Origin: Verrucomicrobiales bacterium
GTDB lineage: Bacteria; Verrucomicrobiota; Verrucomicrobiia; Limisphaerales; UBA11358
DNA length: 64,000 nt
Direction: 5' to 3'
NCBI GenBank assembly: GCA_028712475.1
Contig: JAQTQB010000001.1
Coordinates: 458,180-522,179 of the forward strand
Shown in pieces: positions 11,279 through 55,039 of the stretch (position 1 is its first letter; the number at the start of each line of letters is the position of its first letter). The notes beneath the pieces were generated by a model, which was not told the DNA's origin, searched no databases, and saw nothing but the letters and a program-made list of their open reading frames with translations. A program made the position numbers and the translations under genes.

Positions 11279-14200
11279 CTACGGAGCAACAACGCGATAG
11301 AAACGCCCAGACATTTTTACCGCGTTTAAGTCATCGAAGTCGAATGTCCCGTCGCCTTGATCCTTGGCGACGCCGATTTTTTCCCAGTCCACGAGGTTGG
11401 TGGAGGCCTCAATGATATAAATCTGCTGATGCATCCCCGAAAAGTTCAGATGAATTTTACCATTGGCATGGGAGGAGGCCTTCAATGCCTTGTTGTTTGA
11501 GGCTTCACCACCGCCGGAAAGCGCGTTGATGATGCTCTGCGCCGCATCAATCAGTGATTGGGCCAGTTCAGGATCCAGCGGGCTGATTTGCGCGCTGACT
11601 TGATTTTGGAACGCCTGGAACTGGTTGATGGCCGCCGTTGGATTGCTGCGGTCTATCGAGGCCAGGGCGGCGTTTAAGATGGCAATCAGGGATTGTTTTT
11701 GAGACACATCCGCAACCGCATCCTTCAACCGGTCCACTGCTTGCGCGAGGGTGATTACTTCAACCGCGATCGTATTTTGGTTTGAAGCCAGCCCATCATT
11801 GACCAGCAACGTGATTGAATTGGTGCCAACGGGCAATGCCACGACGGCCACAATGCCCGCGGCCAGAGGATCGAGCGCACCGGTTTGATACCAATAATAC
11901 TGGAGCGAATCTCCGTCCGGGTCGAACGACAACGACCCGTCCAAAACAACCGTCGCGTTGGAATTGTTTACCGAAATCACCAATGGCGTGGTGGCAGATG
12001 CATCAGCCACCGGCGGATTATTTACCTTCAGAACGGCATTTGAACTTGTGCCCGATCCATAAAGATTCGTCACGGTGACAAAATAAGTTCCCGCATCAGA
12101 AACTTGAACGTTTGAAAGTGTCAAGGACGCGTTCGTGGCTCCGTCAATCGGCAAACCCTTGAAATTCCATTGATAATTTAATGGATCGGTTCCCATAGCT
12201 GTGATGCTGAACGTTGCATTATCGCCCACAGTAACCAATAGATTCGCGGGTTGCGAAGTAATAACCGGAGGAGCGGTGTATAACTGTTGAATTTCGTTGG
12301 TTGAAAGCGCGCGACTGTAGATTCGGACATCATCCACTGCGCCGTTCAGATAATTGTTGTAAGCGGGCGCAAACCGGCCGATAGTCCGGCTGGCCTCGCC
12401 GTTGATCGTGCTCCCATAATTTGATGGAACGTTGGTCGGTGCTCCGGGTTCGGCAGCAGCAAATTCACGATTACCATTAACATAAAGCTTCAAGGTTCCG
12501 CCTTCGTCCACCATCACCACGTAATACCACCGGTTCGATTGCGGGAAAGTTGTGCTGGCCACCTCAACATTCACGAGCCCGTCCCAACAATTCGCCACAA
12601 ATCCATAACCAGGGTCAAAGAACAATCTATATGAACACGGCGGATTATTAGGAGAGGCACGGTCCATGATTAACTCCTCGCGTTGCGCGAGACTCGCCAG
12701 ATTGACCCACGTTGCAACCGTATAGTAATTGGAACGCGCATCAAAGTTCAATTGCTTGGCTATATCGGGGACAATCAGATAAAAGTTCTGGCCATTGAAA
12801 GAATACGCTGAATTGTTCTTTCCAAACCGATCTGGAACCGGCACGGCTCCATTCACCTGGCCGTCATGCCCGTTGCCGCTGGCGTCCAAAGCGTTCCCGT
12901 CAAAGGGATAGTGCAGCAGCAATCCATCGTTCAATGTCGGTTCAACGACGTTTAATGTCGCATTGCTGCTTAAAACAGAACCAGCAATGTTTGTGATTAA
13001 TACAGAATAATTCCCAGCATCTGTGAATTGCACATTCGGAATCATCAAGGTCAAGCCAGTTGCTCCGGGAATATTTGTCCCATTTAATTTCCATTGATAG
13101 CTCAATGGGGTTGTCCCTGTCGCACCCACACTAAAACTAACTGTTGAACCAACATAATTTGTAACACTTGTCGGCTGATTCGTGATTGCAGGCGGACTAT
13201 TAATCGGCGACGCGGCTAACTGCTGGATTTCGCTCGCTGAAAGCGCATGGCCATAGATGCGAACGTCATCCAAAGCGCCTTTGAAATAGTTGCCATAAGA
13301 TAAACCGGCGAAGCGACCGATGGAACGGTTGGTTTGTGTGTTTACCGTGCTTCCAAAGCCGGAAGGCATATTAGTTGGCGCGCCCGGCTCGCCTTGAGCG
13401 AGTTCGCGGTTGCCGTTAACATAGAGCTTTATGGTTCCGCCTTCGTCCACCATAGCCACATGATACCACTGATTGCTAACCAGGTGCGTCACACTGGCAA
13501 CCTCAAGGTTTATAATCCCATCCCAGCAACTTGCAATTAGTCCATATGTGGGGTCGAAAAATAAATCATAAGAAGCATGTGGGTTACCGACAGACCCTCG
13601 ATCCATTATCAATTCCTGTCTGGTTGTGACATTCGACAGGTTAAGCCAGAAAGCAATGGTGTAGTAATTGGAGCGCGCGTCAAAATTCAATTGTTTGGAT
13701 TGGTCTGGCACTAAAATATATGCGCTCGATCCATTGAATGAATATGCAGAGTTCGCCGTTCCAAAGCGGTCGGGACACAACGCAGCACCATTCACCTGTC
13801 CGTTATGGTTGTTACCACTGGTGTCCAGAGCATTTCCATCAAAAGGATAATGTAATAACAGCCCACTATCCAAGGAGGATGAAGTGCATTTCCCGGCACT
13901 GCCGGCAGTATAGATGGCCGCAATTTCAGGGGCCGATAGAGCACGACTGTAAATGCTCATTTCATCCAGATCGCCGACATAATTAAATTGCAATGCTCCC
14001 CCCAGATAGGTTCGCGCTCCCAATAGAAGATTCCCAGTGGTCCTTGGGGTGAAAACACCCAGATTTGAATTCGCAACCAAAACCCCGTTCCGATAAAGGG
14101 ACGCCAGCCCGGTAGCCTTATCATACGTCAACGCCACATGCTGATAACCAGAGGAAAGAATTCCTGCCGGAGTTGAAAACGAATGTGGGTTATTAGCTGT

Positions 14201-17200
14201 GTCCATCACATTGGCATACAGGCAGCCCGCTCCGCCAACGGCTGATATCCAGAAATGAACTCCGTTTTGAACTCCGTCAAACTGCCATTCAAACAGGGGA
14301 AGCTGGTTTATGAGATTGCCGGGCTGAATCCAGCCTTCAAGCGTAAATCCTGCGCCCAGCCCCACATTCAATGATGGCGACGCGGGCACCTGAACAAATC
14401 CGCCACCGCCATTATAATGAAAGGCCGAACCGACTTTTCCGGCACTGTATGAAATCACCCCGTTCGTCACGAACCCGTTGTTCCCGCCAATGCTGTCGAG
14501 AGCATTTCCCTCGGCACGCCACCAACTGACGAGGCCGGAGGGTGCGGACGTGCAGGAAGGCACAGCGACCGTCAGGACAGCGTTGCTGCTTAAAGCAGAA
14601 TCTACCGCATTTTCAACCTGCACTGAATAAATTCCTGCATCGGCAAGTTGCACATTAGACAACGTCAGCGTGTCATTGGTTGCGCCAATGATATTCGTTC
14701 CGTTAAACTTCCATTGATAAATCAACGGGGCCGTCCCAGTGGCCGTCACGTTGAAATTCGCCACGCCGCCCACGGTCACCGTCTGGTTGGTCGGCTGTGA
14801 AGTAATGCTCGGCGCCGTCGCGAACGGAACGAGGTTGCGATAGATGGAGATGGTGGCATCATAGAAGTTGCCGAAAGTGATGTCCGGCCGGCCGTCCCCA
14901 TCCAGATCACCAACAGATATGCCAACGGGATTATAGCCCGCAGAGTAGTCCACCCGCGCCATCAGCGACGTCGGCGTGAAACTTCCCGGCACGCTCACAT
15001 TCTTGAAGATCGAGAACACGCTGGGTAATTGGGTGGCCAGCGCAATGTCGAGTTTTCCGTCCCCGTCCAAATCCGCAAGCGTAAGGGTATTTACCCAACC
15101 CGGTGCCGCAAAATCCACCCGGGCGGCAAAAGAACTGGTGGTGATGCTGCCAACCGAGGACGTGTTCCGATAGACTGAAAACGCTTGGGAGTTCTGTGCG
15201 CCCCCGATGAGCAAATCCAGCTTGCCATCGCCATCCATGTCACCAATGGCAATCGAAAAACAAGTCGCTAGGGCCGGAAAGTCCACTCCGGAGGCAAATG
15301 AGTTGGTCGTAATGCTGTTTCCAGTGCCTAGGTTTCGGAATACGGACAGTGTGTTGCCATAGTAATTGCCCACCACCAAGTCCGGCTTGCTGTCACCATC
15401 CAAATCGCCAATGGCCACGCTGGCTGAACCATTGCCGGTAACAAAGTTGACTCTGGCGGCAAAGGCGATGTTCCCGATGGTGCTCGTGTTCTGGAAAATT
15501 GACACGCCGCCGGGAGATGTCTGGCTGGCTGTCACTATCTCCGGCTTGCCATCGCCATTCAAATCCTGCACCGCCAACCCGCGCAGGAAGGTTCCCGCCG
15601 GCAAATCTATCCGGGCGGCAAACGAATTGGTCGTCAAGCTTCCCGGTGAACCGATGTTTCTTAGGATGGAAACAACATTGTTATCCGCATTGAGCGCGAT
15701 GAGGTCGAGCCGCCCGTCGCCATCCACATCGGCCGCTGCAATCGTAAATGGGCTTGACCCGCTGCTGGGCAGCAGCAGCGGCAACACAACCCGCGACGCA
15801 AAAGAACCCGCCGTCAGCGAACCGGACGTGCTGATGTTTCGATAGATGGAAATTTTGGCGATGCTGGAATCGGCAATGGCCAAATCCGGCTTGCCGTCGC
15901 CATCCAAATCCGCAATCACAACCTTGCCCGGTCCCGTTCCGGCTGGCAAATCCAGACGCGCCGCCAGCGAAGAACTGTCAATCATCCCGCTGCCGGAAAA
16001 CGTGGGCAGGAACGGCTGATTGGCATAGGCGGTCAATCCATTCACCGTCACCGTGATTGGCACAAAGGTCGCACCCGTCGGCATCACGACCGTCAGATTC
16101 GTAACACTGGCGTCCGTCACCGCCGCCTGCACGGCCCCAAAATAGACGGTGTTGTTCGCGGCCACGGGACTGAAATTGGTTCCAGTAAGCGTAATACTCA
16201 CGCCGTTCGTCGCGGATGCCGGGCTGAAAGCCGTGATTATCGGAACTGGCAGCGGAGGATTGGCTGGCACGCATTTGCCGGCGCTGCCGGCGTTGTAAAT
16301 GGCGGCAATTTCAGCGGCAGACAGCGCGCGGTTGTAGATGCCCACCTCGTCCAAAAGCCCTTGGTATGGGCCATAGGAATCAAACGGATGGCCGAATACT
16401 GAACCATAAGAGTTCCCCAAGTCCTTGGAAGGGTAGACAAATGACCGGCTGCTGGTGATTCCTGTCCTGACATTCACCCCATTCACATAAAGTGTGGGCT
16501 GTTTGTTCACATAAACCACGGCTACGTGGATCCATCCATTGATCAGATTCGTATAGCTTAGCATTGATGGCATGTAATCGTGCGCATGTTCAATGACGGA
16601 TATTCCATTCGTTCCCACACAGACTCCGACCCCAGCCTGGCCGTCTAATCCGCCCCAGTCTGGAAAAATGGCGTAGCTTTGGCCGCTGATGCCGGGGTAA
16701 CCGCTGTTATTTTCCGGGGCAATATCAAATCCCTTCTGCGGATACGCCCAAAATTCCATTGTGAATGAGTTCTGGATGTTTGTCATCGGCGGCGTATTGG
16801 TATTCATCACGCAACCAGTGACGCCATCAAAAGAAAATGCCTGACCGACCTCGCCATTGGCATAGCCTGTTCCTGGATAAACAAGCCCAGATGGCCCGCC
16901 CGCCACATTATTGGCGTTCCCTTCCGCCCGCCACCACGAAATCAAATTTGAGGGTGCAGGATCACAGGGCGGTGTGATTTGTGAAAACGGAGTGGCGTTC
17001 GTCAATATCGAAAGATTGTTGCCATGAAAATTCGCGCTAATTAAATCCAGCTTGCCGTCCCCGTTGACATCCACCGCTATGACACCATTGGGACTGGATG
17101 AGCCTACGCCCGGCAAGGCGGCCAGGGCAAATTCGCCGCCGCCTTTGTTTGTAAACACCGAAAGCGTATTGTCAAACTGGTTTACGTTAATCAAATCCAC

Positions 17201-18076
17201 CTTGCCATCCCCGCTGATGTCCGCCGCCGTGACAGAACAAGGATAGTTACCCACGCCCGGCGAGGAGGCCAGCGCAAAACCGCCGCCGCCGTTATTCGTC
17301 AACACCGAGAGCGAACTGCCATACGCGTTCGCGTTAATCAAATCCACCTTGCCATCCCCGTTCACATCCGCTGCTGTAATGCCATACGGCCCGCTGCCAA
17401 CTCCCGGTGAGGACGCCAGCGCGAAGCCGCCGCCATTATTCGTCAGCACCGTCAGCGTGTTGCCATTAATATTTGCGCTAATTAAATCCACCTTGCCATC
17501 TCCGTTGACATCCGCCGCCACGACCGAATAAGGATTACTACCCACCCCTGGAGAGGAGGCCAGCACAAAACCGCCACTACCATTATTCGTCAGCACCGTC
17601 AGCGTGTTATTTCCGCCGTTTACGCTAATTAGATCCGCCTTGCCATCTCCGTTGACATCCGCCGCCGTGACCATCCGTGGATCGTTGCCCACAGCATGGG
17701 TGCTGGATATCACGAAGCCGCCGCTTCCGTTGTTAGTCAACACCGAAAGGGAATTGTCCGAATTGTTCACGCAAATCAACTCTGCCTTGCCATCCCCGCT
17801 CACATCCGCCGCCGTGACCCAAATAGGCGTGTTGCCCACGGCCGGAGAGGAGGCCAACACAAAGCCGCCACTGCCGTTGTTGGTCAGCACCGTCAACGTG
17901 TTGTCCAAACCGTTCGCGCTGATCAAATCCATCTTGCCATCCCCGTTGACATCCGTCGCAACGACCATCCAAGGTTGGTTGCCCACGCCTGGCGAGGAAG
18001 AAAGCGTGAAAGAGACTTGCGCCTGTAGCTGGCAGCCGAGCACACACATGGCGATGAATGTGAGATTTATCTTCAT
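11279..18076 (-). CDS. Giant secreted FG-GAP/VCBS - LamG - IPT/Ig multidomain protein (adhesin-like)
   Basis: Signal peptide MKINLTFIAMCVLGCQLQAQ. Two blocks of ~7 FG-GAP/VCBS blades (DVNGDGKxDLI..LTVLTNNG; DLDGDGKPDL..SIYRN). Four LamG/ConA-like modules ending (I/R)Y(N/S/G)(R/H)ALSxxEI. One IPT/TIG-like module and three Ig-like modules (..YQWKxNGTNIxGAT..). Also a DPDGD PKD-like module and a C-terminal beta module ending FYRVVAP. Confidence 0.9.
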   Translation of the reverse strand: MKINLTFIAMCVLGCQLQAQVSFTLSSSPGVGNQPWMVVATDVNGDGKMDLISANGLDNTLTVLTNNGSGGFVLASSPAVGNTPIWVTAADVSGDGKAELICVNNSDNSLSVLTNNGSGGFVISSTHAVGNDPRMVTAADVNGDGKADLISVNGGNNTLTVLTNNGSGGFVLASSPGVGSNPYSVVAADVNGDGKVDLISANINGNTLTVLTNNGGGFALASSPGVGSGPYGITAADVNGDGKVDLINANAYGSSLSVLTNNGGGGFALASSPGVGNYPCSVTAADISGDGKVDLINVNQFDNTLSVFTNKGGGEFALAALPGVGSSSPNGVIAVDVNGDGKLDLISANFHGNNLSILTNATPFSQITPPCDPAPSNLISWWRAEGNANNVAGGPSGLVYPGTGYANGEVGQAFSFDGVTGCVMNTNTPPMTNIQNSFTMEFWAYPQKGFDIAPENNSGYPGISGQSYAIFPDWGGLDGQAGVGVCVGTNGISVIEHAHDYMPSMLSYTNLINGWIHVAVVYVNKQPTLYVNGVNVRTGITSSRSFVYPSKDLGNSYGSVFGHPFDSYGPYQGLLDEVGIYNRALSAAEIAAIYNAGSAGKCVPANPPLPVPIITAFSPASATNGVSITLTGTNFSPVAANNTVYFGAVQAAVTDASVTNLTVVMPTGATFVPITVTVNGLTAYANQPFLPTFSGSGMIDSSSLAARLDLPAGTGPGKVVIADLDGDGKPDLAIADSSIAKISIYRNISTSGSLTAGSFASRVVLPLLLPSSGSSPFTIAAADVDGDGRLDLIALNADNNVVSILRNIGSPGSLTTNSFAARIDLPAGTFLRGLAVQDLNGDGKPEIVTASQTSPGGVSIFQNTSTIGNIAFAARVNFVTGNGSASVAIGDLDGDSKPDLVVGNYYGNTLSVFRNLGTGNSITTNSFASGVDFPALATCFSIAIGDMDGDGKLDLLIGGAQNSQAFSVYRNTSSVGSITTSSFAARVDFAAPGWVNTLTLADLDGDGKLDIALATQLPSVFSIFKNVSVPGSFTPTSLMARVDYSAGYNPVGISVGDLDGDGRPDITFGNFYDATISIYRNLVPFATAPSITSQPTNQTVTVGGVANFNVTATGTAPLIYQWKFNGTNIIGATNDTLTLSNVQLADAGIYSVQVENAVDSALSSNAVLTVAVPSCTSAPSGLVSWWRAEGNALDSIGGNNGFVTNGVISYSAGKVGSAFHYNGGGGFVQVPASPSLNVGLGAGFTLEGWIQPGNLINQLPLFEWQFDGVQNGVHFWISAVGGAGCLYANVMDTANNPHSFSTPAGILSSGYQHVALTYDKATGLASLYRNGVLVANSNLGVFTPRTTGNLLLGARTYLGGALQFNYVGDLDEMSIYSRALSAPEIAAIYTAGSAGKCTSSSLDSGLLLHYPFDGNALDTSGNNHNGQVNGAALCPDRFGTANSAYSFNGSSAYILVPDQSKQLNFDARSNYYTIAFWLNLSNVTTRQELIMDRGSVGNPHASYDLFFDPTYGLIASCWDGIINLEVASVTHLVSNQWYHVAMVDEGGTIKLYVNGNRELAQGEPGAPTNMPSGFGSTVNTQTNRSIGRFAGLSYGNYFKGALDDVRIYGHALSASEIQQLAASPINSPPAITNQPTSVTNYVGSTVSFSVGATGTTPLSYQWKLNGTNIPGATGLTLMIPNVQFTDAGNYSVLITNIAGSVLSSNATLNVVEPTLNDGLLLHYPFDGNALDASGNGHDGQVNGAVPVPDRFGKNNSAYSFNGQNFYLIVPDIAKQLNFDARSNYYTVATWVNLASLAQREELIMDRASPNNPPCSYRLFFDPGYGFVANCWDGLVNVEVASTTFPQSNRWYYVVMVDEGGTLKLYVNGNREFAAAEPGAPTNVPSNYGSTINGEASRTIGRFAPAYNNYLNGAVDDVRIYSRALSTNEIQQLYTAPPVITSQPANLLVTVGDNATFSITAMGTDPLNYQWNFKGLPIDGATNASLTLSNVQVSDAGTYFVTVTNLYGSGTSSNAVLKVNNPPVADASATTPLVISVNNSNATVVLDGSLSFDPDGDSLQYYWYQTGALDPLAAGIVAVVALPVGTNSITLLVNDGLASNQNTIAVEVITLAQAVDRLKDAVADVSQKQSLIAILNAALASIDRSNPTAAINQFQAFQNQVSAQISPLDPELAQSLIDAAQSIINALSGGGEASNNKALKASSHANGKIHLNFSGMHQQIYIIEASTNLVDWEKIGVAKDQGDGTFDFDDLNAVKMSGRFYRVVAP

Positions 18077-19312: not shown

Positions 19313-20704
19313 ATGGCGCGGCAGCTCATCATTCTCGCGGGCGGAGCGGGCACGCGGTTGCGCGAACGGCTCGGCGATCTGCCCAAGCCGATGATTCCCA
19401 TCGCGGGCAAGCCGCTGCTCGAACATCAGGTCGAGCTGGCAAAAAAGCACGGCTTCACGGATCTCATTTTTTTTGTCCATTATCGCGCCGACCTGATTGA
19501 AAAACATTTTGGCGACGGGACTAAATTCGGCGTCCGCATCCGTTATATTTTGGAAAAGGAACCGCTCGGCACGGCGGGCGCGGTGCTGGCGGGATTTGAA
19601 TATCTGGCGGAGCGCTTCGTCGTGCTTTACGGCGATACGATGGTGAACGTGGACTTGAACCGCATCTGGAACGCGCACGAAAAAGCGAACGCCGCCGCGA
19701 CGTTATTGCTGCATCCGAACGATCATCCGTTCGATTCCGACCTGGTGGAAATCAATGCTGAATCGGTTGTCACCGCGTTCCACAACCGCCCGCACGACGG
19801 AACTGTCTGGCGGCAGAATCTGGTGAACGCCGGGCTTTACGTTCTGGAAAAGCGCGCGCTGGCGTCTTTTCAATTTTGTAGCAGCGGACGTGAGTCCGCT
19901 CATCCTCCAGAAAAACAGAGCCGACTTGCGTCGGCTGCTACGATTTTCGATTTTGGAAAAGATGTTTTCCCGGCGATGGTTCGCGCGGGGGAAAAATTGC
20001 TGGGCTACAACTCGCCGGAATTCATCAAGGACATCGGCACGCCGGCGCGGTATGACAAGATTTCCGCGCAGTTCGCGGCGGGCATCGTGCAGCGCAGTTC
20101 GCTGGCCACGCCCCAGCGCGCGGTGTTTCTGGACCGCGACGGCACGCTGATCCCCGACATGGATTGCCTGCGGAACGCGGACGAACTGGAACTTTTGCCG
20201 GGCGTGGCCGGGGCGATTCATGAGTTGAATCTGCAAGGCTGGCGGACGGTCGTGATCACGAATCAACCGGTGATAGCCAAAGGTTTTTGCGACGAAGCTG
20301 AATTGCAGAAAATTCATAACAAACTGGAGTCGCTGCTGGGCCGTGAACACGCTTTCATTGACCGGATTTATTTCTGCCCGCATCACCCGGAAAAAGGATT
20401 TCCGGGCGAACGCCCGGAATTGAAAACCGAGTGCGATTGCCGCAAACCCAAGACCGGCATGATCCAAAAGGCGGTGGCGGAGTTGAACATTGATTTGAAA
20501 CAGTCGTGGCTGGTCGGCGACACGACAACGGATTTGCAGACGGCCAAAAATGCCGGGCTGAAATCCATCCTGGTGCGGACGGGTTCAGCCGGTCGCGACG
20601 GAAAATTTGACGCTCCGCCGGATTTTGTATGTAATGACCTCCGTCAAGCCGCCCAAATAATATGCGAAACCGAAGCCGACAGCGCGCCACGCGATAAAGG
20701 ATGA
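19313..20704 (+). CDS. Bifunctional sugar-1-phosphate nucleotidyltransferase (HddC-like) / D,D-heptose 1,7-bisphosphate phosphatase (GmhB-like)
   Basis: N-terminal LAGGAGTRLRERLGDLPKPMIPIAGKPLL and EKEPLGTAGAV (NTP-transferase). C-terminal VFLDRDGTLI, CPHHP...CDCRKPKTGM and GDTTTDLQTA (HAD, GmhB Zn motif). Confidence 0.85.
   Translation: MARQLIILAGGAGTRLRERLGDLPKPMIPIAGKPLLEHQVELAKKHGFTDLIFFVHYRADLIEKHFGDGTKFGVRIRYILEKEPLGTAGAVLAGFEYLAERFVVLYGDTMVNVDLNRIWNAHEKANAAATLLLHPNDHPFDSDLVEINAESVVTAFHNRPHDGTVWRQNLVNAGLYVLEKRALASFQFCSSGRESAHPPEKQSRLASAATIFDFGKDVFPAMVRAGEKLLGYNSPEFIKDIGTPARYDKISAQFAAGIVQRSSLATPQRAVFLDRDGTLIPDMDCLRNADELELLPGVAGAIHELNLQGWRTVVITNQPVIAKGFCDEAELQKIHNKLESLLGREHAFIDRIYFCPHHPEKGFPGERPELKTECDCRKPKTGMIQKAVAELNIDLKQSWLVGDTTTDLQTAKNAGLKSILVRTGSAGRDGKFDAPPDFVCNDLRQAAQIICETEADSAPRDKG
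19878..19941. repeat. GTAG-hairpin inverted doublet (REPIN-like), in-frame inside the HddC-GmhB gene
   Basis: GTAGCAGCGGACGTGAGTCCGCTC - 16 nt - GAGCCGACTTGCGTCGGCTGCTAC. Translated as ..CSSGRESAHPPEKQSRLASAAT.. Confidence 0.85.
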
Positions 20705-28730: not shown

Positions 28731-28798
28731 GTAGCAGCCGACGTGAGTCGGCTCTAACTTTCTCGGATAAAAGTGAGCGAACTCACGTCCGCCGCTAC
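28731..28798. repeat. GTAG-hairpin inverted doublet (REPIN-like), intergenic or at a gene end
   Basis: GTAGCAGCCGACGTGAGTCGGCTC - 20 nt - GAGCGAACTCACGTCCGCCGCTAC. The terminal GTAG (minus strand) supplies the TAG stop of the 28795-33156 gene. Confidence 0.85.
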
Positions 28799-37233: not shown

Positions 37234-37488
37234 ATGCAGGAGTCAATAATTCCAATCAATGCACTTTCCACGGGACCAAATTATACATTATACGGTGGTG
37301 ATATTTCAGGCTTTGCCGGACAAACAACCCAAATGACTTTTTCAGATGTGGGTATATTTGCCAACTTTTGGAACATAGACAATATACAATTTTCTTCTTC
37401 GCCGATTCCCGAACCAAGCATGCTTGCCTTGTGCATACTTGGTGCATTGCTTCTCGGTTTCCGCCGCTGGCAGCAATCCAGTCAATAA
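37234..37488 (+). pseudogene. Orphan C-terminal fragment of a PEP-CTERM protein
   Basis: Ends ..[33 protein letters not shown] (PEP motif, TM, basic cluster). No signal peptide and only 84 aa. Sits in a low-GC patch next to the IS remnant. Confidence 0.55.
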
Positions 37489-37618
37489 TCAGCAGCCTTT
37501 TATTTCCAAGGTCTTCGACAGGTTGTCCGCTTTGCTGGCAACCCGCTTTGTTTGTCCGCCAGACAACGCCCCGTGTTTCATTGCCGGAACCGTCCATGCG
37601 GAATATCTTTCGCCTGTC

Positions 37619-39937
37619 ATGCACACCAACCGGCTCGCCCGTGAAAAATCGCCGTATCTGCTCCAGCACGCGCACAATCCCGTGGACTGGTTCGCGTGGA
37701 ACGACGAGGCCTTCGCCAGGGCGCGCGCGGAAAACAAACCCGTCTTCTTGAGCATCGGCTATTCAACGTGCCATTGGTGTCACGTCATGGAACGCGAATC
37801 CTTCGAGCAGGAAAACATTGGCAAATTCCTCAACGAACATTTCGTCAGCATCAAGGTGGACCGCGAGGAACGCCCCGACGTGGATAAAATTTACATGACC
37901 TTCGTGCAGTCCACGACCGGCTCCGGCGGCTGGCCGATGAGTGTTTTTCTCACGCCCGATTTGAAACCGTTCTTCGGCGGCACTTATTTTCCGCCGGACG
38001 CACGTCATGGCCGGCCCGGTTTTTTGCAATTGCTCCAGCAAATCAGCCAGCTCTGGCGGGAACGCCGTGAAGAACTCGCCTCCTCCGCCGAGGAAATCCA
38101 TGCGCGGCTGGAAATCGCAATGGCCGGCTCGACCACGGGCGATGCGTTGCTGGACGCAGAGACAATCCGTCGCGCCGGGGCGCTGTTCAAGGAAAGCTAC
38201 GACCCGCGCCACGGCGGATTCGGCGGCGCGCCGAAATTTCCGCAGCCGGGCATTCCCTCGCTCGTGCTGCGCTACGCCAGACGCTTCAACGACGTTGAAG
38301 CGGTGAAGATGGTCTTGCACACCTGCGATGCGATGGCGGCGGGCGGCATCCACGACCAGCTCGGCGGCGGCTTTGCGCGCTACTCCGTGGATGCCGAATG
38401 GCTCGTGCCGCATTTTGAGAAAATGCTCTACGACAACGCGCAGCTTGCGCAGCTTTACCTCGACGCGTTTCTGGTCAGCGGCGACGAGCGACACGCCGAA
38501 GTTGTGCGCGACATTCTTGATTATGTGTTGCGCGACATGACGCATCCTGACGGTGGCTTTTATTCCGCGGAGGACGCCGACAGCGAAGGCCAGGAAGGGA
38601 AATTCTACTGCTGGACGAAGGATGAACTTTCCAAGCTGCTGACGGTCGAGGAATTCAACGTGGCCGCAAAATACTTTGGCATCACGGCGGCTGGAAACTT
38701 TATTGACCACAGCCATCCGCAGCCGTTGCAAGGGCTGAACGTGTTGAGCGTCGTCAATCCCGTCCGTAGCAGCGGACGTGAGTCCGCTCAAACTTCCAGC
38801 CAGTCCGCCGAAAGGATTGAGCCGATTCACATCGGCTGCTGCGATGACGAACTGCTCGCCTCCGCCAAAAAGAAAATGCTCGCCGTCCGCGCGCAACGCG
38901 TCCGCCCGCATCTGGACGATAAAATTCTCGCCTCGTGGAACGGCCTGATGATCGGGGCGTTTGCACGCGCCTACGCCGTCATCGGCGACGAAACCTATCG
39001 TGCGGCGGCGGAGAAAAATCTGGCATTCATTTGCGAAAAACTCTGGGTGAATGGACGAGACAGTGGTTTGGACATCTCGCTTTCCCTCACCCCGGGGGAG
39101 AGGGAGAATCATTCCCCGTCACTTGGCAAATCTACGGCTGAATCTGGTTCGGCGACCGATGAAAATTTAAGCAACGCACAACGGTTGTTTCCTCTCCCTG
39201 GGGGAGAGGATCAGGGTGAGGGGCGGCATTTTGTTGTCGGCACATTGTTCCACCGCTGGCGCGACGGAGAGCGGGACAGCGTGCAACTGCTCGAGGCCTA
39301 CGCCTTTCTTCTGTCCGGCGTGATTGATCTGTATGAAGCGACGCTTGAGCCGAAGCATCTCGACTTCGCGATTGAACTGGCCGGGGCGATGCTCGTAAAA
39401 TTTTACGACGCGGAGAACGGCGGCTTCTGGCAAAGCGCGGCGGGCGCAACTGATTTGATCCTGCGCGTGAAGGACGATTACGACGGCGCGGAACCTTCGG
39501 GAAATTCCGTCGCCACGCTCGCGCTGCTGAAACTTGGCGCGATCACCGGGCGGAAAAATTTCACCGTCGCCGCAGAGAAAACTTTGCGCCTGTTCGCGCA
39601 TCGCCTTCAAAACTTTCCCCAGGCGCTGCCGTTCATGTTGCACGCGGTGGATTTTTCGTTGCAGGAGCCGGCGCGGGTCGTGGTCGCTGGCGATCCCGGC
39701 CTGTTTCACTTTGATTTGACTGGTGATGACACGATTTCCAGCAAGGCGCTGGCACTGCTTCACGCCGCGCACTCGGTTTATCGGCCAAATAAAATTGTTC
39801 TTGGCAGCACGGGCGCGGTGGAGGAATTTGCCAGAACCTTGCCCGCGAAAGACGGTGCGGTGGTTTATCTTTGCACCGGCAATGTCTGCCAGCCGCCGAC
39901 CGACGATCCGGCCAAGCTGAAAGAAATGCTGAAATAA
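37619..39937 (+). CDS. Thioredoxin-domain protein YyaL/DUF255 (SPATA20-like, with a GlcNAc 2-epimerase-like barrel)
   Basis: [59 protein letters not shown]. The start is taken at MHTNRLA (37619). Carries two repeat insertions. Confidence 0.9.
38766..38842. repeat. GTAG-hairpin inverted doublet (REPIN-like), in-frame inside yyaL
   Basis: GTAGCAGCGGACGTGAGTCCGCTC - 29 nt - GAGCCGATTCACATCGGCTGCTGC. Translated as RSSGRESAQ...EPIHIGCC. Confidence 0.8.
39084..39223. repeat. Second palindromic insert type (CCCTCACCCCGGGGGAGAGGGAG ... CTCCCTGGGGGAGAGGATCAGGGTGAGGGG), in-frame inside yyaL
   Basis: Outer inverted repeat CCCTCACCC/GGGTGAGGG, an inner GGGGGAGAGG motif in both arms, and an AT-richer centre. 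Translated as [11 protein letters not shown]...[13 protein letters not shown]. Confidence 0.7.
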
Positions 39938-43805: not shown

Positions 43806-43900
43806 AAATCCAGCTTAACTCCGCCGGGCGCGATTGCAAATGTTCTGCACGCGAGAAACGGATTTTGTTTGGCCAATTTTTGAGTTATGCTGCCCGTCAA

Positions 43901-46561
43901 ATGGTTTCAACCGCCACAACCGATGCCGCGAAAAGCGGACGCGACGAAGAGAATCTGCCGCGCCTGCCAGAATTGCTCGCGCCCGCCGGCGACTGGGAAT
44001 GCGCCAAGGCCGCCGTGGAAAATGGCGCGGATGCCATCTACTTCGGCCTGGATAAATTCAACGCGCGGATGCGGGCCCATAATTTCACCGGGGCCGACCT
44101 GCCGAAGCTCATGGAGTTCCTGCACCGGCGCGGTGTCAAAGGCTACGTCACGTTTAACACGCTGGTTTTCCAGAACGAACTGGCCGATGCGGAGAATTAT
44201 CTGCGCGCCATCATCGCCGCCGGGGTGGACGCGGCCATCGTGCAGGACGTGGGGATTTGCCGGCTCATCCGAAAATTGTCGCCCGATTTTCCGATCCATG
44301 CTTCCACGCAGATGACCGTCACGAGCGCGGCCGGGGTGGAATTTGCCCGCAAACTCGGCTGCAATCTCGCCGTGCTGGCACGGGAATGTTCAATTGCTGA
44401 AATCGAAAAAATTCGCGCGGCAGACGAGGCCGCCTTATCACTCGTCACTCGTCACGCATCACTGCCCTTGGAGGTTTTCGTCCACGGCGCGCTGTGCGTT
44501 GCCTACTCCGGCCAATGCCTGACGAGCGAATCGCTGGGCGGTCGTTCGGCCAACCGCGGCGAATGCGCGCAGGCATGCCGGATGCCTTACGATTTGATCT
44601 CCGATGGCAAACAAGTGCCGCTTGGCGACAAGCGGTATTTATTAAGCCCGCAGGATCTGGCCGGGTTGGAAGTGTTGCCGGAACTCGTGCGCGCCGGCGT
44701 CGCCTCGCTCAAGATCGAAGGCCGCCTCAAAGCGCCGGAATACGTCGCCAGCATCACGCGCGTCTATCGCAAGGCGCTCAATCAACTTGGTAGCAGCCGA
44801 CGTGAGGAGGCTCAAATCTCCTCGTTGAACCAAAAGAATGAGCCTCCTCACGTCGGCTGCTACGACGAGCAAGACCGTTACGACATGGAGATGTCCTTCT
44901 CGCGTGGTCTTTACACCGGCTGGTTCGGTGGCGTCAACAACCAGCAGCTCGTTCATGCGCGGTTTGGAAAAAAGCGCGGCGTGTTCCTCGGTGAAGTCGC
45001 CCGGGTCCAGAACGAAAAAGTCACCCTGCACCTGCAAGCGCCGCTGAAACCGGGCGACGGCGTGGTGTTCGACGCCGGCCGGCCGGATGAAAAAGAGGAG
45101 GGCGGGCGCATTTACGGCATCAAGAATTTTCAAAACAAAACGACGCGCACCGAGGAATCGGTTCTGGAATTTGGCTACGGCAACATTGATTTCAACCGTG
45201 TCCACGTCGGCGACAAATTGTGGAAGACGAACGATCCCGAACTCGACAAGCGCCTGCGCCGGAGTTTTGCCGGGGATGCCCCGCGCTTTCAACGGCCCAT
45301 TGAGATGGAAGTTCATGGCCTCGCTGGCAAACCTCTCACGATCATCGCTCGCGACGAACTGGGACACGTCGTCCAGTTTGATTCCACGATGCCGCTGGCC
45401 AAGGCTGAAAAACAACCGCTCACCACCGAACGTTTGCGCGACCAGTTCGGCCGCCTCGGCGGAACGCCCTTTAATCTGGGCGAGCTGAAAAATTTTCTGA
45501 CGGGTGAAGTGATGCTGCCCATGAGCGAACTGAACCGCCTGCGCCGCGAAGTCGCGACACAGCTCGAAATACTCCGCGCGCAGCCGAAGCGGTGGCAGTT
45601 CAATAATGGTAGCAGCCGAGGTGACGAGGCTCATTCCTCGCTTCCAACCAGTAAGAGCCTCCTCACGTCGGCTGCTACAAATCCAGAATTGATTGTCCTC
45701 GTCCGCAGCTTGCCGCAGTTGGAAGCGGCGTTGAAATGCGGCGTGCAGACCGTGTATTGCGAATTTGAAGACCCCAAGAAATATCGCGAAGCCGTCACGA
45801 CTTTCCACACCGCCTACGGCTGTTCAACGCCATCCTCCATCCTCCATCCTCCATCCTCGCAACCCAGCATCTGGGTCGCCCCGCCGCGCATTTTCAAAAT
45901 GGGCGAAGACTGGATATTGAAGCTGGTCCGTTCCTGCAACGCCGATGGCTACCTCGTCCGCAATTACGATCACTTGAAGTTTTTCGCCGGTTGCCGGAAG
46001 CGCGGCGATTATTCGCTGAACGTGGCCAACCGGCTGGCGGCGGATTATTTCAAAAACCAATTCGGCCTGGAGCAGCTCACGCCGTCCTACGATTTGAATT
46101 TCACGCAGCTCGAAGCGCTTTTACAGGCCGCGCCGCCGGAATGGTTCGAGGTCACGATCCACCAGCACATGCCGATGTTTCACATGGAGCACTGCGTCTT
46201 CTGCGCCTTTCTGTCCAGCGGCACGGACTACACGAACTGCGGCCGGCCTTGCGACACGCATGTCGTCAAGCTGCGCGACCGAGTCGGCGCGGAGCACACG
46301 CTCAAGGCGGATGCCGGCTGCCGCAACACCGTGTTCAACTCGCAGACGCAGACCGGTGCGGAATACATCGCGAAGATGATCGAGCTGGGCGTGCGGAATT
46401 TCCGCGTGGAATTTCTGAATGAAACGCCGGAAACCGTCGAGCGCACCATTGTCAGATACCGCCAGCTTCTGCGCGGGGAAATTGATGGAACGCAATTGTG
46501 GCGCGAGTTGAAGTTGATGAACCAGCTCGGCGTCACACGCGGGCAGATCGCGAAGTTGTAG
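43901..46561 (+). CDS. Peptidase U32 family protein (long form)
   Basis: ELLAPAGDWECAKAAVENGADAIYFGLDKFNARMRAHNF and EVFVHGALCVAYSGQCLTS. The ATG at 43901 is preferred over the TTG at 43865. Contains four repeat insertions. Confidence 0.85.
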   Translation: MVSTATTDAAKSGRDEENLPRLPELLAPAGDWECAKAAVENGADAIYFGLDKFNARMRAHNFTGADLPKLMEFLHRRGVKGYVTFNTLVFQNELADAENYLRAIIAAGVDAAIVQDVGICRLIRKLSPDFPIHASTQMTVTSAAGVEFARKLGCNLAVLARECSIAEIEKIRAADEAALSLVTRHASLPLEVFVHGALCVAYSGQCLTSESLGGRSANRGECAQACRMPYDLISDGKQVPLGDKRYLLSPQDLAGLEVLPELVRAGVASLKIEGRLKAPEYVASITRVYRKALNQLGSSRREEAQISSLNQKNEPPHVGCYDEQDRYDMEMSFSRGLYTGWFGGVNNQQLVHARFGKKRGVFLGEVARVQNEKVTLHLQAPLKPGDGVVFDAGRPDEKEEGGRIYGIKNFQNKTTRTEESVLEFGYGNIDFNRVHVGDKLWKTNDPELDKRLRRSFAGDAPRFQRPIEMEVHGLAGKPLTIIARDELGHVVQFDSTMPLAKAEKQPLTTERLRDQFGRLGGTPFNLGELKNFLTGEVMLPMSELNRLRREVATQLEILRAQPKRWQFNNGSSRGDEAHSSLPTSKSLLTSAATNPELIVLVRSLPQLEAALKCGVQTVYCEFEDPKKYREAVTTFHTAYGCSTPSSILHPPSSQPSIWVAPPRIFKMGEDWILKLVRSCNADGYLVRNYDHLKFFAGCRKRGDYSLNVANRLAADYFKNQFGLEQLTPSYDLNFTQLEALLQAAPPEWFEVTIHQHMPMFHMEHCVFCAFLSSGTDYTNCGRPCDTHVVKLRDRVGAEHTLKADAGCRNTVFNSQTQTGAEYIAKMIELGVRNFRVEFLNETPETVERTIVRYRQLLRGEIDGTQLWRELKLMNQLGVTRGQIAKL
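44435..44462. repeat. Heptamer tandem array (TTATCAC TCGTCAC TCGTCAC GCATCAC) inside a CDS
   Basis: Read directly. Translated as LSLVTRHASL. Confidence 0.7.
44790..44863. repeat. GTAG-hairpin inverted doublet (REPIN-like), perfect 24-nt arms, in-frame inside the U32 gene
   Basis: GTAGCAGCCGACGTGAGGAGGCTC - 26 nt - GAGCCTCCTCACGTCGGCTGCTAC; the arms are exact reverse complements. Confidence 0.9.
45609..45678. repeat. GTAG-hairpin inverted doublet (REPIN-like), in-frame inside the U32 gene
   Basis: GTAGCAGCCGAGGTGACGAGGCTC - 22 nt - GAGCCTCCTCACGTCGGCTGCTAC. Confidence 0.85.
45830..45857. repeat. Heptamer tandem array (CCATCCT x4) inside a CDS
   Basis: Four perfect 7-mers. Translated as PSSILHPPSS. 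The same unit forms the palindrome in cinA. Confidence 0.85.
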
Positions 46562-49542: not shown

Positions 49543-49630
49543 GTCCTGAAGGGACTTTGGATACTAGCCAGCCACAAAGTGGCTGGTAACTGAATAAAAA
49601 ACAAATTTGTCCCGCAAGGGACGATGGAAA
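49543..49630. repeat. REP hairpin cluster 3' of the RAYT gene
   Basis: GTCC-tgaag-GGAC, cTAG-CCAGCCAC-AAA-GTGGCTGG (49568-49586), then ACAAATTT-GTCCC-gcaa-GGGAC-GATGGA. Confidence 0.8.
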
Positions 49631-49633
49631 ATA

Positions 49634-50080
49634 TCACCACAAATGTTTTTCATCGTATTCAACAAGATGTTTCTGGAGAAATGTCACATATTCCTCCTGA
49701 AATGTTTTTGTCCGGTGATGCTTGGCCTGGTTGGCGATGTATTCCTTCACCGCCTCGCAATTGGAAACGCTGACCGTGAACGCGCCATAACCCGGTTGCC
49801 ATGCAAAATTTTTCACGCCGATGGTTTCATGAATCCAGCGCGACGAGGTTTGCTTGATGTCTTGCACGAACGACGCAAGCGCGTGCGTTGCACGCAAACC
49901 AACCAGCAAATGAACATGATCAGCCGTGCCACCGATGATTTCGGGAATTCCGTCCGCCGCCCGCACCAAGCCGCCGAGGTATTCATGCAATCGTCCGCGC
50001 CAGTCATCAGCGATGAACGGATGCCGGTCTTTCGTGCTGAACACGATGTGAAAATGCAGGCTTAAATGCGTGGATGGCAT
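49634..50080 (-). CDS. REP-associated tyrosine transposase (RAYT, IS200/IS605 Y1 TnpA-like)
   Basis: 148 aa. LHFHIVFSTKDR, an HUH motif ADHVHLLVG, and a catalytic-Tyr region VKEYIANQAKHH. Flanked on both sides by related hairpin repeats. Confidence 0.9.
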   Translation of the reverse strand: MPSTHLSLHFHIVFSTKDRHPFIADDWRGRLHEYLGGLVRAADGIPEIIGGTADHVHLLVGLRATHALASFVQDIKQTSSRWIHETIGVKNFAWQPGYGAFTVSVSNCEAVKEYIANQAKHHRTKTFQEEYVTFLQKHLVEYDEKHLW

Positions 50081-50303
50081 ACAAATTTATCCGGCAAAGT
50101 TTTGTCGCGGAGCGACAATGGAGATTAGCCAGACACAAAGTGTCTGGATTCGGCACGCAAATTGATTCGTCCTGAAAGGACGATGGAATTTCCGATAGAC
50201 AATCATCATTCAAATGTTTCCGCCGTCCTTTCAGGACGGGTTTTCTTTTGCCGCGACACCAGACACTTCGTGTCTGGCTAATTTCCGGTTGTGCCTTCGG
50301 CAC
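50081..50303. repeat. REP hairpins forming a REPIN-like large palindrome 5' of the RAYT gene
   Basis: tTAG-CCAGACAC-AAA-GTGTCTGG (50129-50147) and its inverted partner CCAGACAC-TTC-GTGTCTGG-CTAa (50259-50277). GTCCTGAAAGGAC (50169) pairs with GTCCTTTCAGGAC (50225). A GTGCC-ttc-GGCAC hairpin lies at 50291. Confidence 0.8.
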
Positions 50304-53530: not shown

Positions 53531-53713
53531 GACCCCAGGCACAAACGCCCGGCTTCCAAAGAAGCTCCCAACTTCAACTTCCAGATGAAAATGCGTGGCA
53601 ACTCCTTGAGACGTGGTTATTAAAAGTTGTCTGGAGCTTGGATGCCGGAGGCTGGAATTTTCCACGGTGAAATCGTGCTTGTGGGAAGGCTGTCGTTCCC
53701 AAACCATTTCCGC

Positions 53714-55039
53714 GTGAACGTCGAACTCATCAACACCGGCAGCGAGCTTTTGCTGGGCCGCGTTTTGAACACGCACCAGCAATGGCTTTGCCGACGCTTC
53801 GCTGACCTCGGCCATGTCGTCTCGCGGCAAGTCGCCGTGCCGGACACGGCGCACGAAATCCAGCAATCCGTCCGCGAGGCTCTGGGCCGCGCAGACCTGG
53901 TGATTGTCACCGGCGGACTCGGCCCGACTTCCGACGACGTGACGCGTGACTTGATCGCGCGATTGCTCGGCAGAAAATTATTGCGCGACGAAGCGGTTTT
54001 CGCGCACATCAAAAATTATTTCGCCGCGCGCAACCGCCCGATGCCCGAGAACAACGACGTGCAGGCGATGGTGCCGGAGGGAGCCATCGTTTTGCCCAAT
54101 CCAAATGGAACGGCACCGGGGCTGGCGATGCGTGCGGAAAGAAACGAAGATGGAGGATGGAGGATGGAGGATGGAGGAAAACCGTCGGTTCCATCTTCCA
54201 TCCTCCATCCTCCATCCTCGCACTCCGGCGCATGGCTCATCATGCTGCCCGGCCCGCCGCGCGAGCTGCGCCCGATGTTTGACGATGCCGTGGTGCCGCT
54301 GCTGCAACGGGAATTTCCAGCGGCGATGCCGTTCGTCTGCCGCACGTTGCGGACGGGAGGCATCGGCGAATCGGCGATTCAGGAAAAAATCAAAGCACCG
54401 CTGGCTGCGCTCGTGGCTGCGGGTCTGGAGGTCGGCTACTGCGCGCGGGTCGGGCAAGTGGACGTGCGGCTGACGGCGCGCTGTGCAGGTGCGGAAAAAA
54501 TTGTGAGCGAGGCGGAAGCGGTCGTGCAAAAAATCCTCGGCACGAACATTTATGGTTTTGACGACGAGGAAATCGAGATGGTCGTCGTCCGGCTGTTGAC
54601 GGAGCGCAAAAAAACCCTGGCGCTGGCGGAATCCTGCACGGGCGGCGGCATCGCCAGCCGCGTGACAAATGTGCCGGGAGCGTCGGCAGTTTTTCTGGGC
54701 GGGTTCGTGACTTACAGCAACGCGTCGAAGGAAAAATTTCCGGGCGTCCGCGCGGAAACACTGGCCGGCCACGGTGCGGTGAGCGAAGCGGTGGCGCGGG
54801 AAATGGCCGCAGGCACGCGGGAAAAGTTCGGTGCGGATTTTGCCATTGCCGTCACAGGCATCGCGGGGCCGGGCGGCGGCACGGCGGACAAGCCGGTGGG
54901 AACGGTTTTCATCGCACTGGCGGGAGAATGCGGCACGGTGGTTGAACACCGGCTCAACGCTTATGAGCGCGAGGTGTTCAAGGAATTGACGTCGCAGCAG
55001 GCGTTGGAAATGTTGCGGCATCGGCTGGTTTCTGCTTGA
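53714..55039 (+). CDS. cinA: CinA family protein (MoCF-binding domain plus nicotinamide-nucleotide amidase PncC domain)
   Basis: VELINTGSELLLGRVLNTH, VIVTGGLGPTSDD, LPGPPREL, and C-terminal LALAESCTGGGIASR..GVSEAVAREMA. The start is uncertain (GTG at 53714 or ATG at 53642). Confidence 0.85.
   Translation: MNVELINTGSELLLGRVLNTHQQWLCRRFADLGHVVSRQVAVPDTAHEIQQSVREALGRADLVIVTGGLGPTSDDVTRDLIARLLGRKLLRDEAVFAHIKNYFAARNRPMPENNDVQAMVPEGAIVLPNPNGTAPGLAMRAERNEDGGWRMEDGGKPSVPSSILHPPSSHSGAWLIMLPGPPRELRPMFDDAVVPLLQREFPAAMPFVCRTLRTGGIGESAIQEKIKAPLAALVAAGLEVGYCARVGQVDVRLTARCAGAEKIVSEAEAVVQKILGTNIYGFDDEEIEMVVVRLLTERKKTLALAESCTGGGIASRVTNVPGASAVFLGGFVTYSNASKEKFPGVRAETLAGHGAVSEAVAREMAAGTREKFGADFAIAVTGIAGPGGGTADKPVGTVFIALAGECGTVVEHRLNAYEREVFKELTSQQALEMLRHRLVSA
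54149..54218. repeat. Palindrome of heptamer arrays: (GATGGAG)x4 - 14 nt - CCATCTT (CCATCCT)x3, in-frame inside cinA
   Basis: Read directly. 28-nt arms, complementary with one mismatch. Translated as EDGGWRMEDGGKPSVPSSILHPPSS. Confidence 0.9.

Follow-up and report, generated by a model that had tools for sequence, protein, structure and literature searches.

A 64,000-nt stretch of a Verrucomicrobiales genome assembly (GCA_028712475.1, contig JAQTQB010000001.1, positions 458,180 to 522,179; the whole stretch is referred to as the window) carries five copies of an inverted repeat with a GTAG tag at both ends, four of them in frame within genes for conserved enzymes. With a probability of roughly 85%, the element is a REPIN (repetitive extragenic palindromic (REP) sequence doublet forming hairpins), i.e. 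a non-autonomous mobile unit of two inverted GTAG-tagged REP hairpins. The five copies had been located in an earlier note made from the letters of the window, and their positions, lengths (64–77 nt) and spacers (16–29 nt) were reproduced exactly. The doublets (no strand assigned) and their host genes are as follows:

44790..44863, no strand: GTAG REP doublet (REPIN-like), 74 nt, perfect 25-nt arms; in frame as GSSRREEAQISSLNQKNEPPHVGCY in the U32 peptidase gene, hypervariable site 1
45609..45678, no strand: GTAG REP doublet, 70 nt; in frame as GSSRGDEAHSSLPTSKSLLTSAAT in the U32 peptidase gene, site 2
38766..38842, no strand: GTAG REP doublet, 77 nt; in frame, 26 aa, in the YyaL/DUF255 gene; alignment gap relative to PDB 7tkv
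19878..19941, no strand: GTAG REP doublet, 64 nt; in frame as CSSGRESAHPPEKQSRLASAAT in the nucleotidyltransferase domain of the HddC-GmhB fusion gene
28731..28798, no strand: GTAG REP doublet, 68 nt, between two minus-strand genes
43865..46561, plus strand: host gene, U32 peptidase with DUF3656; contains one heptamer-repeat insert in addition to two GTAG doublets
37424..39937, plus strand: host gene, YyaL-like thioredoxin-domain protein (DUF255); database protein start near 37619
19313..20704, plus strand: host gene, sugar-phosphate nucleotidyltransferase / D,D-heptose-1,7-bisphosphate phosphatase fusion; Pfam domains on both sides of the insert

A 16-nt core (GTAGCAGCSGASGTGA, up to 2 mismatches) matched 10 arms and nothing else in the window; 0.08 matches were expected by chance, and none of 100 shuffles reached 10. 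Folding of the window copies as single-stranded DNA gave z-scores of -4 to -11, and the 25-nt arms of the 44790 copy proved 100% complementary, as had been claimed. The four intragenic copies lie within long plus-strand open reading frames (ORFs) with Pfam domains on either side of the insert (NTP_transferase and HAD/GmhB; DUF255/YyaL; Peptidase_U32 and DUF3656), and the frame is intact in all four. The U32 database protein (P0001, 886 aa) starts 12 codons within the ORF. The fifth copy, previously placed outside ORFs, is indeed not intragenic, but it is not simply intergenic either: the TAG of its right-hand tag (28795-28797, minus strand; the CTAC end) is the stop codon of the upstream glycogen-debranching-enzyme gene. 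A GTAG-tagged doublet at 53-106 had been taken for a divergent relative. Its arms (GTAGCGGCCGTCTGTGACCGCC / GTAGCGGTGCTCTATGAGCGCC, 6-nt spacer) have 6 mismatches to the 16-nt core, so that by arm sequence it is assigned to a family other than that of the five copies; it lies just downstream of a gene ending at 115 and has a folding z-score of -6.9. Rfam covariance models, run over the whole window, gave no family at the gathering score.

For arm and doublet statistics, the window and 120 listed loci (L001-L120) were scanned, which yielded 255 arms and 101 doublets, 97 of the latter evaluable. Each arm is composed of GTAGC, a 7-bp stem (A-G-C-S-G-A-S, positions 6-12 pairing with 23-17), a GTGA loop, the returning stem and a final C. 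The tag bases G1, T2, A3 and G4 were present in 252, 249, 244 and 254 arms, respectively, and the loops are mostly of GNRA type (GTGA in 215 arms, GTAA in 24). Stem pair 9-20 was C-G in 208 arms, G-C in 43 and otherwise composed in 4; pair 12-17 was C-G in 222, G-C in 20 and T-A in 3. In the middle of the stem, two pairs are G-C/A-T in some arms and tandem G.A/A.G in others. Among 83 distinct arms, both sides had changed in 6 of the 7 stem pairs. The covariation score was 0.286 versus 0.076 in shuffles (0 of 500 as high) and at most 0.084 in slid controls. Since the scan pattern let positions 9 and 20 mismatch freely, covariation at this pair was not forced by sampling.

Pairing of arms is the rule: 202 of the 255 form the 101 doublets and 53 are single. 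Tags point outwards, and doublets measure 58–140 nt (mostly 65–94 nt) with spacers of about 10–90 nt. Because 70 of the 101 doublets are heterodimers, each arm keeps its own stem, beyond matching its partner. The tags form the outer ends of the element, and on the tag strand the dinucleotide next to each of them is a pyrimidine pair (TC, CC, CT, TT), i.e. YY is preferred directly before GTAG. No target duplication was detected: direct repeats of 2, 3, 4 and 5 nt at the ends occurred in 3, 2, 0 and 0 of 101 doublets, at or below chance. Flank complementarity or an extended palindrome outside the tags likewise did not exceed chance, and complementary spacer ends were not found.

Transposase candidates were searched by tblastn using RAYT (REP-associated tyrosine transposase) sequences from Additional file 5 of Di Nocera et al. 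An ORF at 935-1561 of locus L006 (208 aa) shares 39% identity with the RAYT of Rhodopirellula baltica (1e-39). It matched NCBIfam REP_Tyr_transpos with 7e-12 and 45 bits, under the curated cut-off of 80, and also PDB 4er8 (TnpA-REP), where the HUH motif and the catalytic Tyr-NPVK motif both align. Just upstream of this ORF there is a doublet of the family, two arms lie at and after its 3' end, and the arrangement is alike in L076. A metagenome scan with the L006 protein retrieved 23 loci at 55–64% identity, and in 23 of 23 family arms were located within about 300 nt of the RAYT gene and were rare further off. This RAYT-type Y1 transposase, flanked by the family in 2 genome and 23 of 23 metagenome loci, is the putative cognate partner, and the association of REPs with a RAYT that defines a REPIN system therefore holds for the family. 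The suggestion of the earlier note that the doublets are of the REP/REPIN kind acted on by RAYTs was upheld by arm-hairpin covariation, the lack of target duplication and the flanking of RAYT genes by the family in 25 of 25 related loci. The same note had also named a RAYT at 49634-50080 of the window with flanking hairpins of a different family. The hairpins do belong to another family; the gene itself scores as IS200/IS605 and was rejected as the partner, as were its relatives in L068 and L038, which have IS200/IS605 scores and other hairpins, too. The hairpins flanking the rejected Y1 genes consist of TAGCC plus CCAGACAC..GTGTCTGG, or of CCCGGGC..GCCCGGG.

Distribution was assessed with a 24-nt pattern on one genome per species. 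At least 120 loci were obtained in at least 86 species-level assemblies, and among the matches listed nearly all assemblies are labelled Verrucomicrobiota (Limisphaerales, Pedosphaera, subdivision 3). A single metagenome-assembled genome (MAG), JACRJZ01, accounts for at least 12 loci. An entire lineage, subdivision 3 / Limisphaerales of the Verrucomicrobiota, carries the family. It was also encountered on contigs of MAGs titled Bifidobacterium, Klebsiella, Chitinophaga and similar (L003, L008, L047, L049, L050, L055, L070, L087, L093, L094, L101, L109 and L120); these are probably mislabelled or contaminated bins and not cases of horizontal spread.

Doublets were scored as intragenic if the spanning ORF was open for at least 40 codons with a coding score on both sides. 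The score was based on codon usage trained on the window's long ORFs (in-frame 60-codon median 0.26; off-frame 95th percentile 0.075). By this definition 30 of the 97 evaluable doublets (about 31%) are intragenic and open, 8 hold the stop codon of a gene (5 of these through the TAG of the tag) and 59 (61%) are intergenic. Extragenic location, the historical mark of a REP, therefore does not apply to 30 of 97 doublets, nor to 4 of the 5 in the window. Arms are open in two of three entry frames and in all three exit frames. The intragenic copies enter as SSRRE (20) or VAADV (10), and the third entry frame, which contains TAG and TGA stops, was never used. A single left-arm frame had been proposed previously; SS(G/R)(R/G)(E/D)(S/E)A is indeed read in all four window copies, but the split across the 30 intragenic copies identifies this as a small-sample effect.

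These frame data bear on two other explanations. The inserts might be untranslated, i.e. excised from the mRNA in the manner of mini-introns or skipped by the ribosome in a translational hop, as would fit very stable hairpins and nominal lengths (64–77 nt) that are not multiples of three. However, all intragenic copies are stop-free with the upstream and downstream frames in register, the stop-bearing entry frame is avoided, and orthologous copies differ by 0 or 3 nt (70/70/70/73/70, 64/67 and 77/77). None of this is needed if the segment is skipped, and skipping is very improbable. The data argue instead that the inserts would be translated and tolerated in loops. Alternatively, a peptide module could be selected at the protein level with DNA palindromy being incidental. 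Similar peptides do occur in unrelated proteins, and the exits LTSAAT, HVGCY and RRLL were used 23, 6 and 1 times, compared with expectations of 13.4, 8.8 and 7.8 calculated from the open configurations that non-genic copies offer. This skew may reflect selection on the encoded peptide or non-independent copies. Yet the same DNA is read in two entry and three exit frames, most copies lie outside genes, third codon positions in the arms are conserved and the hairpin is kept by compensatory changes, which leaves a peptide module hardly credible.

Host proteins were compared with orthologues, as the earlier note had proposed, and orthologues without the insert do exist. For YyaL, the site is empty (..VNP DVPAAD QPLLASAK) in many orthologues, about a third of those listed, and PDB 7tkv is without the insert segment. 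Most HddC orthologues have 7–13 variable residues at the site, and 7 of 120 have a GTAG insert. The best 120 U32 orthologues are all full length (840–917 aa) with variable inserts at three shared sites; one of them (P0114) is nearly empty at site 1, and at site 2 no fewer than 4 other genomes have an orthologous GTAG copy. For the U32 protein, PDB contained no sequence match. In its AlphaFold2 model, the segments with a predicted local distance difference test (pLDDT) score below 50 include 301-321, 561-592 and 642-652, which are the three inserts, and these sit between confident secondary-structure elements. This agrees with the loop location anticipated beforehand.

Across genomes, the same sites are filled by different DNA. 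Occupants of the YyaL site are the GTAG family, a GGGAGGGACGGCG.. doublet, a CCCCCTCACCC..GGGTGAGGGGG palindrome, a GGAACGCCGA..TCGGCGTTCC palindrome, or a pair formed by two other GTAG REPs with 2 nt between them. U32 site 1 holds a GTAG doublet, inverted (CGATTTA)n arrays or a ACCGCCGAGACGCGGAG.. palindrome, and U32 site 3 holds direct heptamer arrays whose unit differs from genome to genome. In the window, this third hypervariable site (45817-45859) is a (CCATCCT)x4 tandem read as PSSILHPPSS; in an orthologue it is (CTCAACC)n, read as SQPSTLNPQP. The simplest interpretation is that a protein offers very few permissive places, so that each widely inserting family turns up there. Empty YyaL sites (DV[SP]AAD) were also considered as collapsed REP remnants; an 8-nt match (CGGACGTG) had prompted the idea, which was left unsupported. 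Exact 10-mer inverted repeats formed 10 clusters in the window versus 1–7 in shuffles, a scan too insensitive for a census of other palindrome families.

Conservation of the arms inside genes was measured on inherited copies in the three genes. Four-fold-degenerate sites were 0.60–0.69 identical and spacers 0.52–0.77. In the arms, 20–24 of 24 positions matched (mean about 0.93). As third codon positions in the arms are conserved as well, the constraint acts at the DNA or RNA level. Slow arm change would then result from hairpin selection or from conversion by the genome-wide REP population. In one JGI sample (3300051094), two U32 genes of about 85% identity share an identical 86-nt tract at site 2 (L128 1945-2030 / L154 1914-1999), which comprises the GTAG doublet and 16 nt downstream, and the bases just upstream diverge. 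The tract could be due to recombination, strong constraint or an assembly artefact (co-assembly cross-talk). It also fits the explanation that the inserts are assembly chimeras from repeat collapse, as does the origin of the window from a metagenome-type assembly. Against chimeras, independent assemblies, made from different samples with different pipelines (ENA, JGI, NCBI, Logan), have the same inserts at identical codons and frames are always kept, and the chance that chimeras explain the inserts is close to negligible.

Interpreted as a REPIN, the element would be propagated as follows. A single-copy RAYT (Y1 HUH transposase, a relative of E. coli TnpA-REP) would recognise the folded hairpin and the GTAG tag on single-stranded DNA and copy the unit to new places without target duplication, mostly after two pyrimidines. 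Copies would land anywhere, and only a filtered subset would survive inside genes, namely those that keep the frame, have a stop-free reading and are located in permissive loops or inter-domain linkers. Survivors would be translated to about 22–32 low-complexity residues with the entry SSRREEA.. or VAADVS.. and the exit ..LLTSAAT or ..PPHVGCY.

Several points weigh against this reading. Mobility itself is deduced; filled and empty orthologous sites are consistent with gain and loss. Comparison of filled with empty orthologous sites revealed no clean insertion difference. Lengths of the intragenic copies fall into all modulo-3 classes (16, 10 and 4, versus 46, 33 and 17 overall), and a fixed insertion unit, sought as a single modulo-3 length class among them, was not found. 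Both results imply that the history of the sites includes replacement and remodelling and not simple cut-and-insert. No RAYT homologue was detected by tblastn in the 64-kb window; the source genome's own RAYT would lie outside it. The sampled copies are not phylogenetically independent, the codon-model classification is home-made and uncalibrated beyond the window, and the U32 AlphaFold model is of moderate quality (mean pLDDT 63.9), with low confidence expected where the alignment is variable. Finally, palindromes or repeats of some kind occupy the same three inter-domain sites in nearly all of the best 120 U32 orthologues, and the arms are conserved well above the neutral rate, which would also fit a host-selected role.

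The last two points, together with the GNRA-type loops, favour host-selected structural signals at domain boundaries (ribosome-pausing or mRNA-protecting RNA, or DNA bound by a host factor), for which the repeat nature would be secondary. Such signals are nevertheless an unlikely explanation. The YyaL site is empty in a substantial share of orthologues, HddC segments are short in most, and P0114 is nearly empty; unrelated sequences, among them non-palindromic tandem heptamers, occupy one and the same site; most doublets are intergenic and the family is tightly linked to a transposase; and arm conservation is also general in REP populations. A more far-reaching proposal is tentative and rather doubtful: loops and linkers might be fixed landing pads for mutually replacing palindromes and 7-nt arrays, and in-gene arms, with about 93% identity against about 65% at synonymous sites and one shared 86-nt tract, might be actively maintained and no decaying debris, either as substrates of a RAYT-driven, site-directed cassette exchange that remodels linkers or as hairpins used by the host (e.g. 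for inter-domain translational pausing). Directed REP-into-REP exchange at loops is possible.

Further repeats were recorded in the window and in the sampled loci. In the CinA gene (53627-55039), inverted arrays (GGAGGAT)4 ... (ATCCTCC)4 at 54145-54220 are in frame as NEDGGWRMEDGGKPSVPSSILHPPSS; this insert lies inside the MoCF_biosynth domain, and its unit is the same as in the U32 gene. The YyaL gene contains, at about 39084-39224, a second in-frame insert, which is a palindrome of a different family (CCCTCACCCCGGGGGAGAGGGAGAA ... CCTCTCCCTGGGGGAGAGGATCAGGGTGAGGGG). It is missing from PDB 7tkv and many orthologues, and peptides like it occupy the first YyaL site in other genomes. Heptamers also occur in REPIN spacers, where 8 of 101 doublets contain 3–5 tandem 7-nt units (GCATTCC, GCGGAGT, CGGATTT, CAATCGG and others), including the 91–94 nt doublets of L008, L018, L034, L038, L049, L054 and L072. 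These spacer heptamers link the heptamer arrays of protein loops to REPIN loops.

The rejected Y1 gene of the window (49634-50080, minus strand, 148 aa) is part of a region at 49565-50286 with REP-like hairpins of its own, TAGCC-AG(A/C)CAC-AAAG-GTG(T/G)CTGG, at about 49565-49590, 50125-50150 and 50255-50285. Inner hairpins (GTCCTGAAAGGAC / GTCCTTTCAGGAC) are located at 50168-50238. The same inverted pair of hairpins, about 130 nt apart, was observed without a transposase in L013. Gene and hairpins look like a second, independent hairpin-transposase system of the genome. In addition, a 2265-aa ORF on the minus strand (11279-18076) contains 147-nt tandem repeats (at least 7 copies, 16998-17986) and 159–345-nt periodic repeats; its product resembles a large surface protein rich in repeats.

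The general picture of REPs is unchanged by these results. They provide a clean and well-populated REPIN-RAYT example outside Proteobacteria, from a little-studied lineage of soil and fresh water in which at least 86 genomes at species level have the family. In these MAGs, gene prediction and homology searches will come across unexplained low-complexity inserts of 20–30 aa in housekeeping enzymes. The inserts mark permissive loops, which are usable in protein engineering, and for intragenic copies the synonymous sites of the host gene serve as a built-in neutral yardstick for REP conservation.

Intragenic elements of this type have been described before. Di Nocera, De Gregorio and Rocco (2013; BMC Genomics 14:522, PMC3733652) sorted REPs into 24 GTAG and 4 CGTC families, reported GTAG REPs from the PVC superphylum, and described dimers, heterodimers and stop codons supplied by the tag. 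They also listed intragenic GTAG REPs and dimers coding for 20–30 aa, with the top count in the verrucomicrobium Opitutus terrae, at times two per gene (PMC3733652). The statement of the earlier note that REPs are extragenic by definition and that in-frame palindromes are a matter of Rickettsia was therefore outdated in view of the 2013 catalogue (PMC3733652). Common to the O. terrae families GTAG-17 to GTAG-20 and the present one are a 5' GTAG tag beside a 6–9 bp stem-loop and inverted dimers with variable spacers; the GTAG REPs of that study also share common heterodimers, the TAG of the tag as stop of a neighbour, in-ORF copies of 20–30 aa and RAYT association. In contrast, the intragenic peptides of O. 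terrae (GTGVPPV, VGPALAAG, VAGVADIG) are unlike those of the present family, VAAD was not found in the supplementary files of PMC3733652, and the host clade is subdivision 3 / Limisphaerales instead of Opitutales. Occupation of the same orthologue loops by different families and comparison of arms with synonymous sites are only touched there (one recB case).

With the REPIN-RAYT systems of Pseudomonas and Enterobacteria (Bertels and Rainey 2011, PMC3116915; PDB 4er8), the present one shares an inverted REP pair as the unit and a Y1 HUH transposase flanked by its own REPs, as well as the lack of target duplication and long persistence within a lineage (PMC3116915). Those REPINs are described as extragenic, whereas here about 31% of doublets are in genes and open, and the RAYT is nearest to a planctomycete RAYT (39% identity) and reaches 45 bits versus the 80-bit NCBIfam cut-off.

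Rickettsia palindromic elements (RPEs), too, are in-frame palindromes in conserved genes, tolerated in loops and translated as an extra peptide. A CGTC tag is reported for RPE-4 and RPE-6, and for RPE-1 a palindromic insertion of greater length (PMC3733652). RPEs are found in obligate intracellular alphaproteobacteria and have no sequence relation to the present elements, which have a GTAG tag and a length of 58–94 nt for nearly all copies and belong to Verrucomicrobiota. We know of no dedicated transposase for RPEs. The present family is an analogue of RPEs and not a member. No literature on this family, or on REPs of Limisphaerales after Di Nocera 2013, was found. Intragenic GTAG REP dimers as such were already known, and what is new is this sequence family in Limisphaerales. 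Less familiar is the way in which unrelated families replace one another at fixed loops of proteins; how strongly the arms are conserved within genes is a further notable point.

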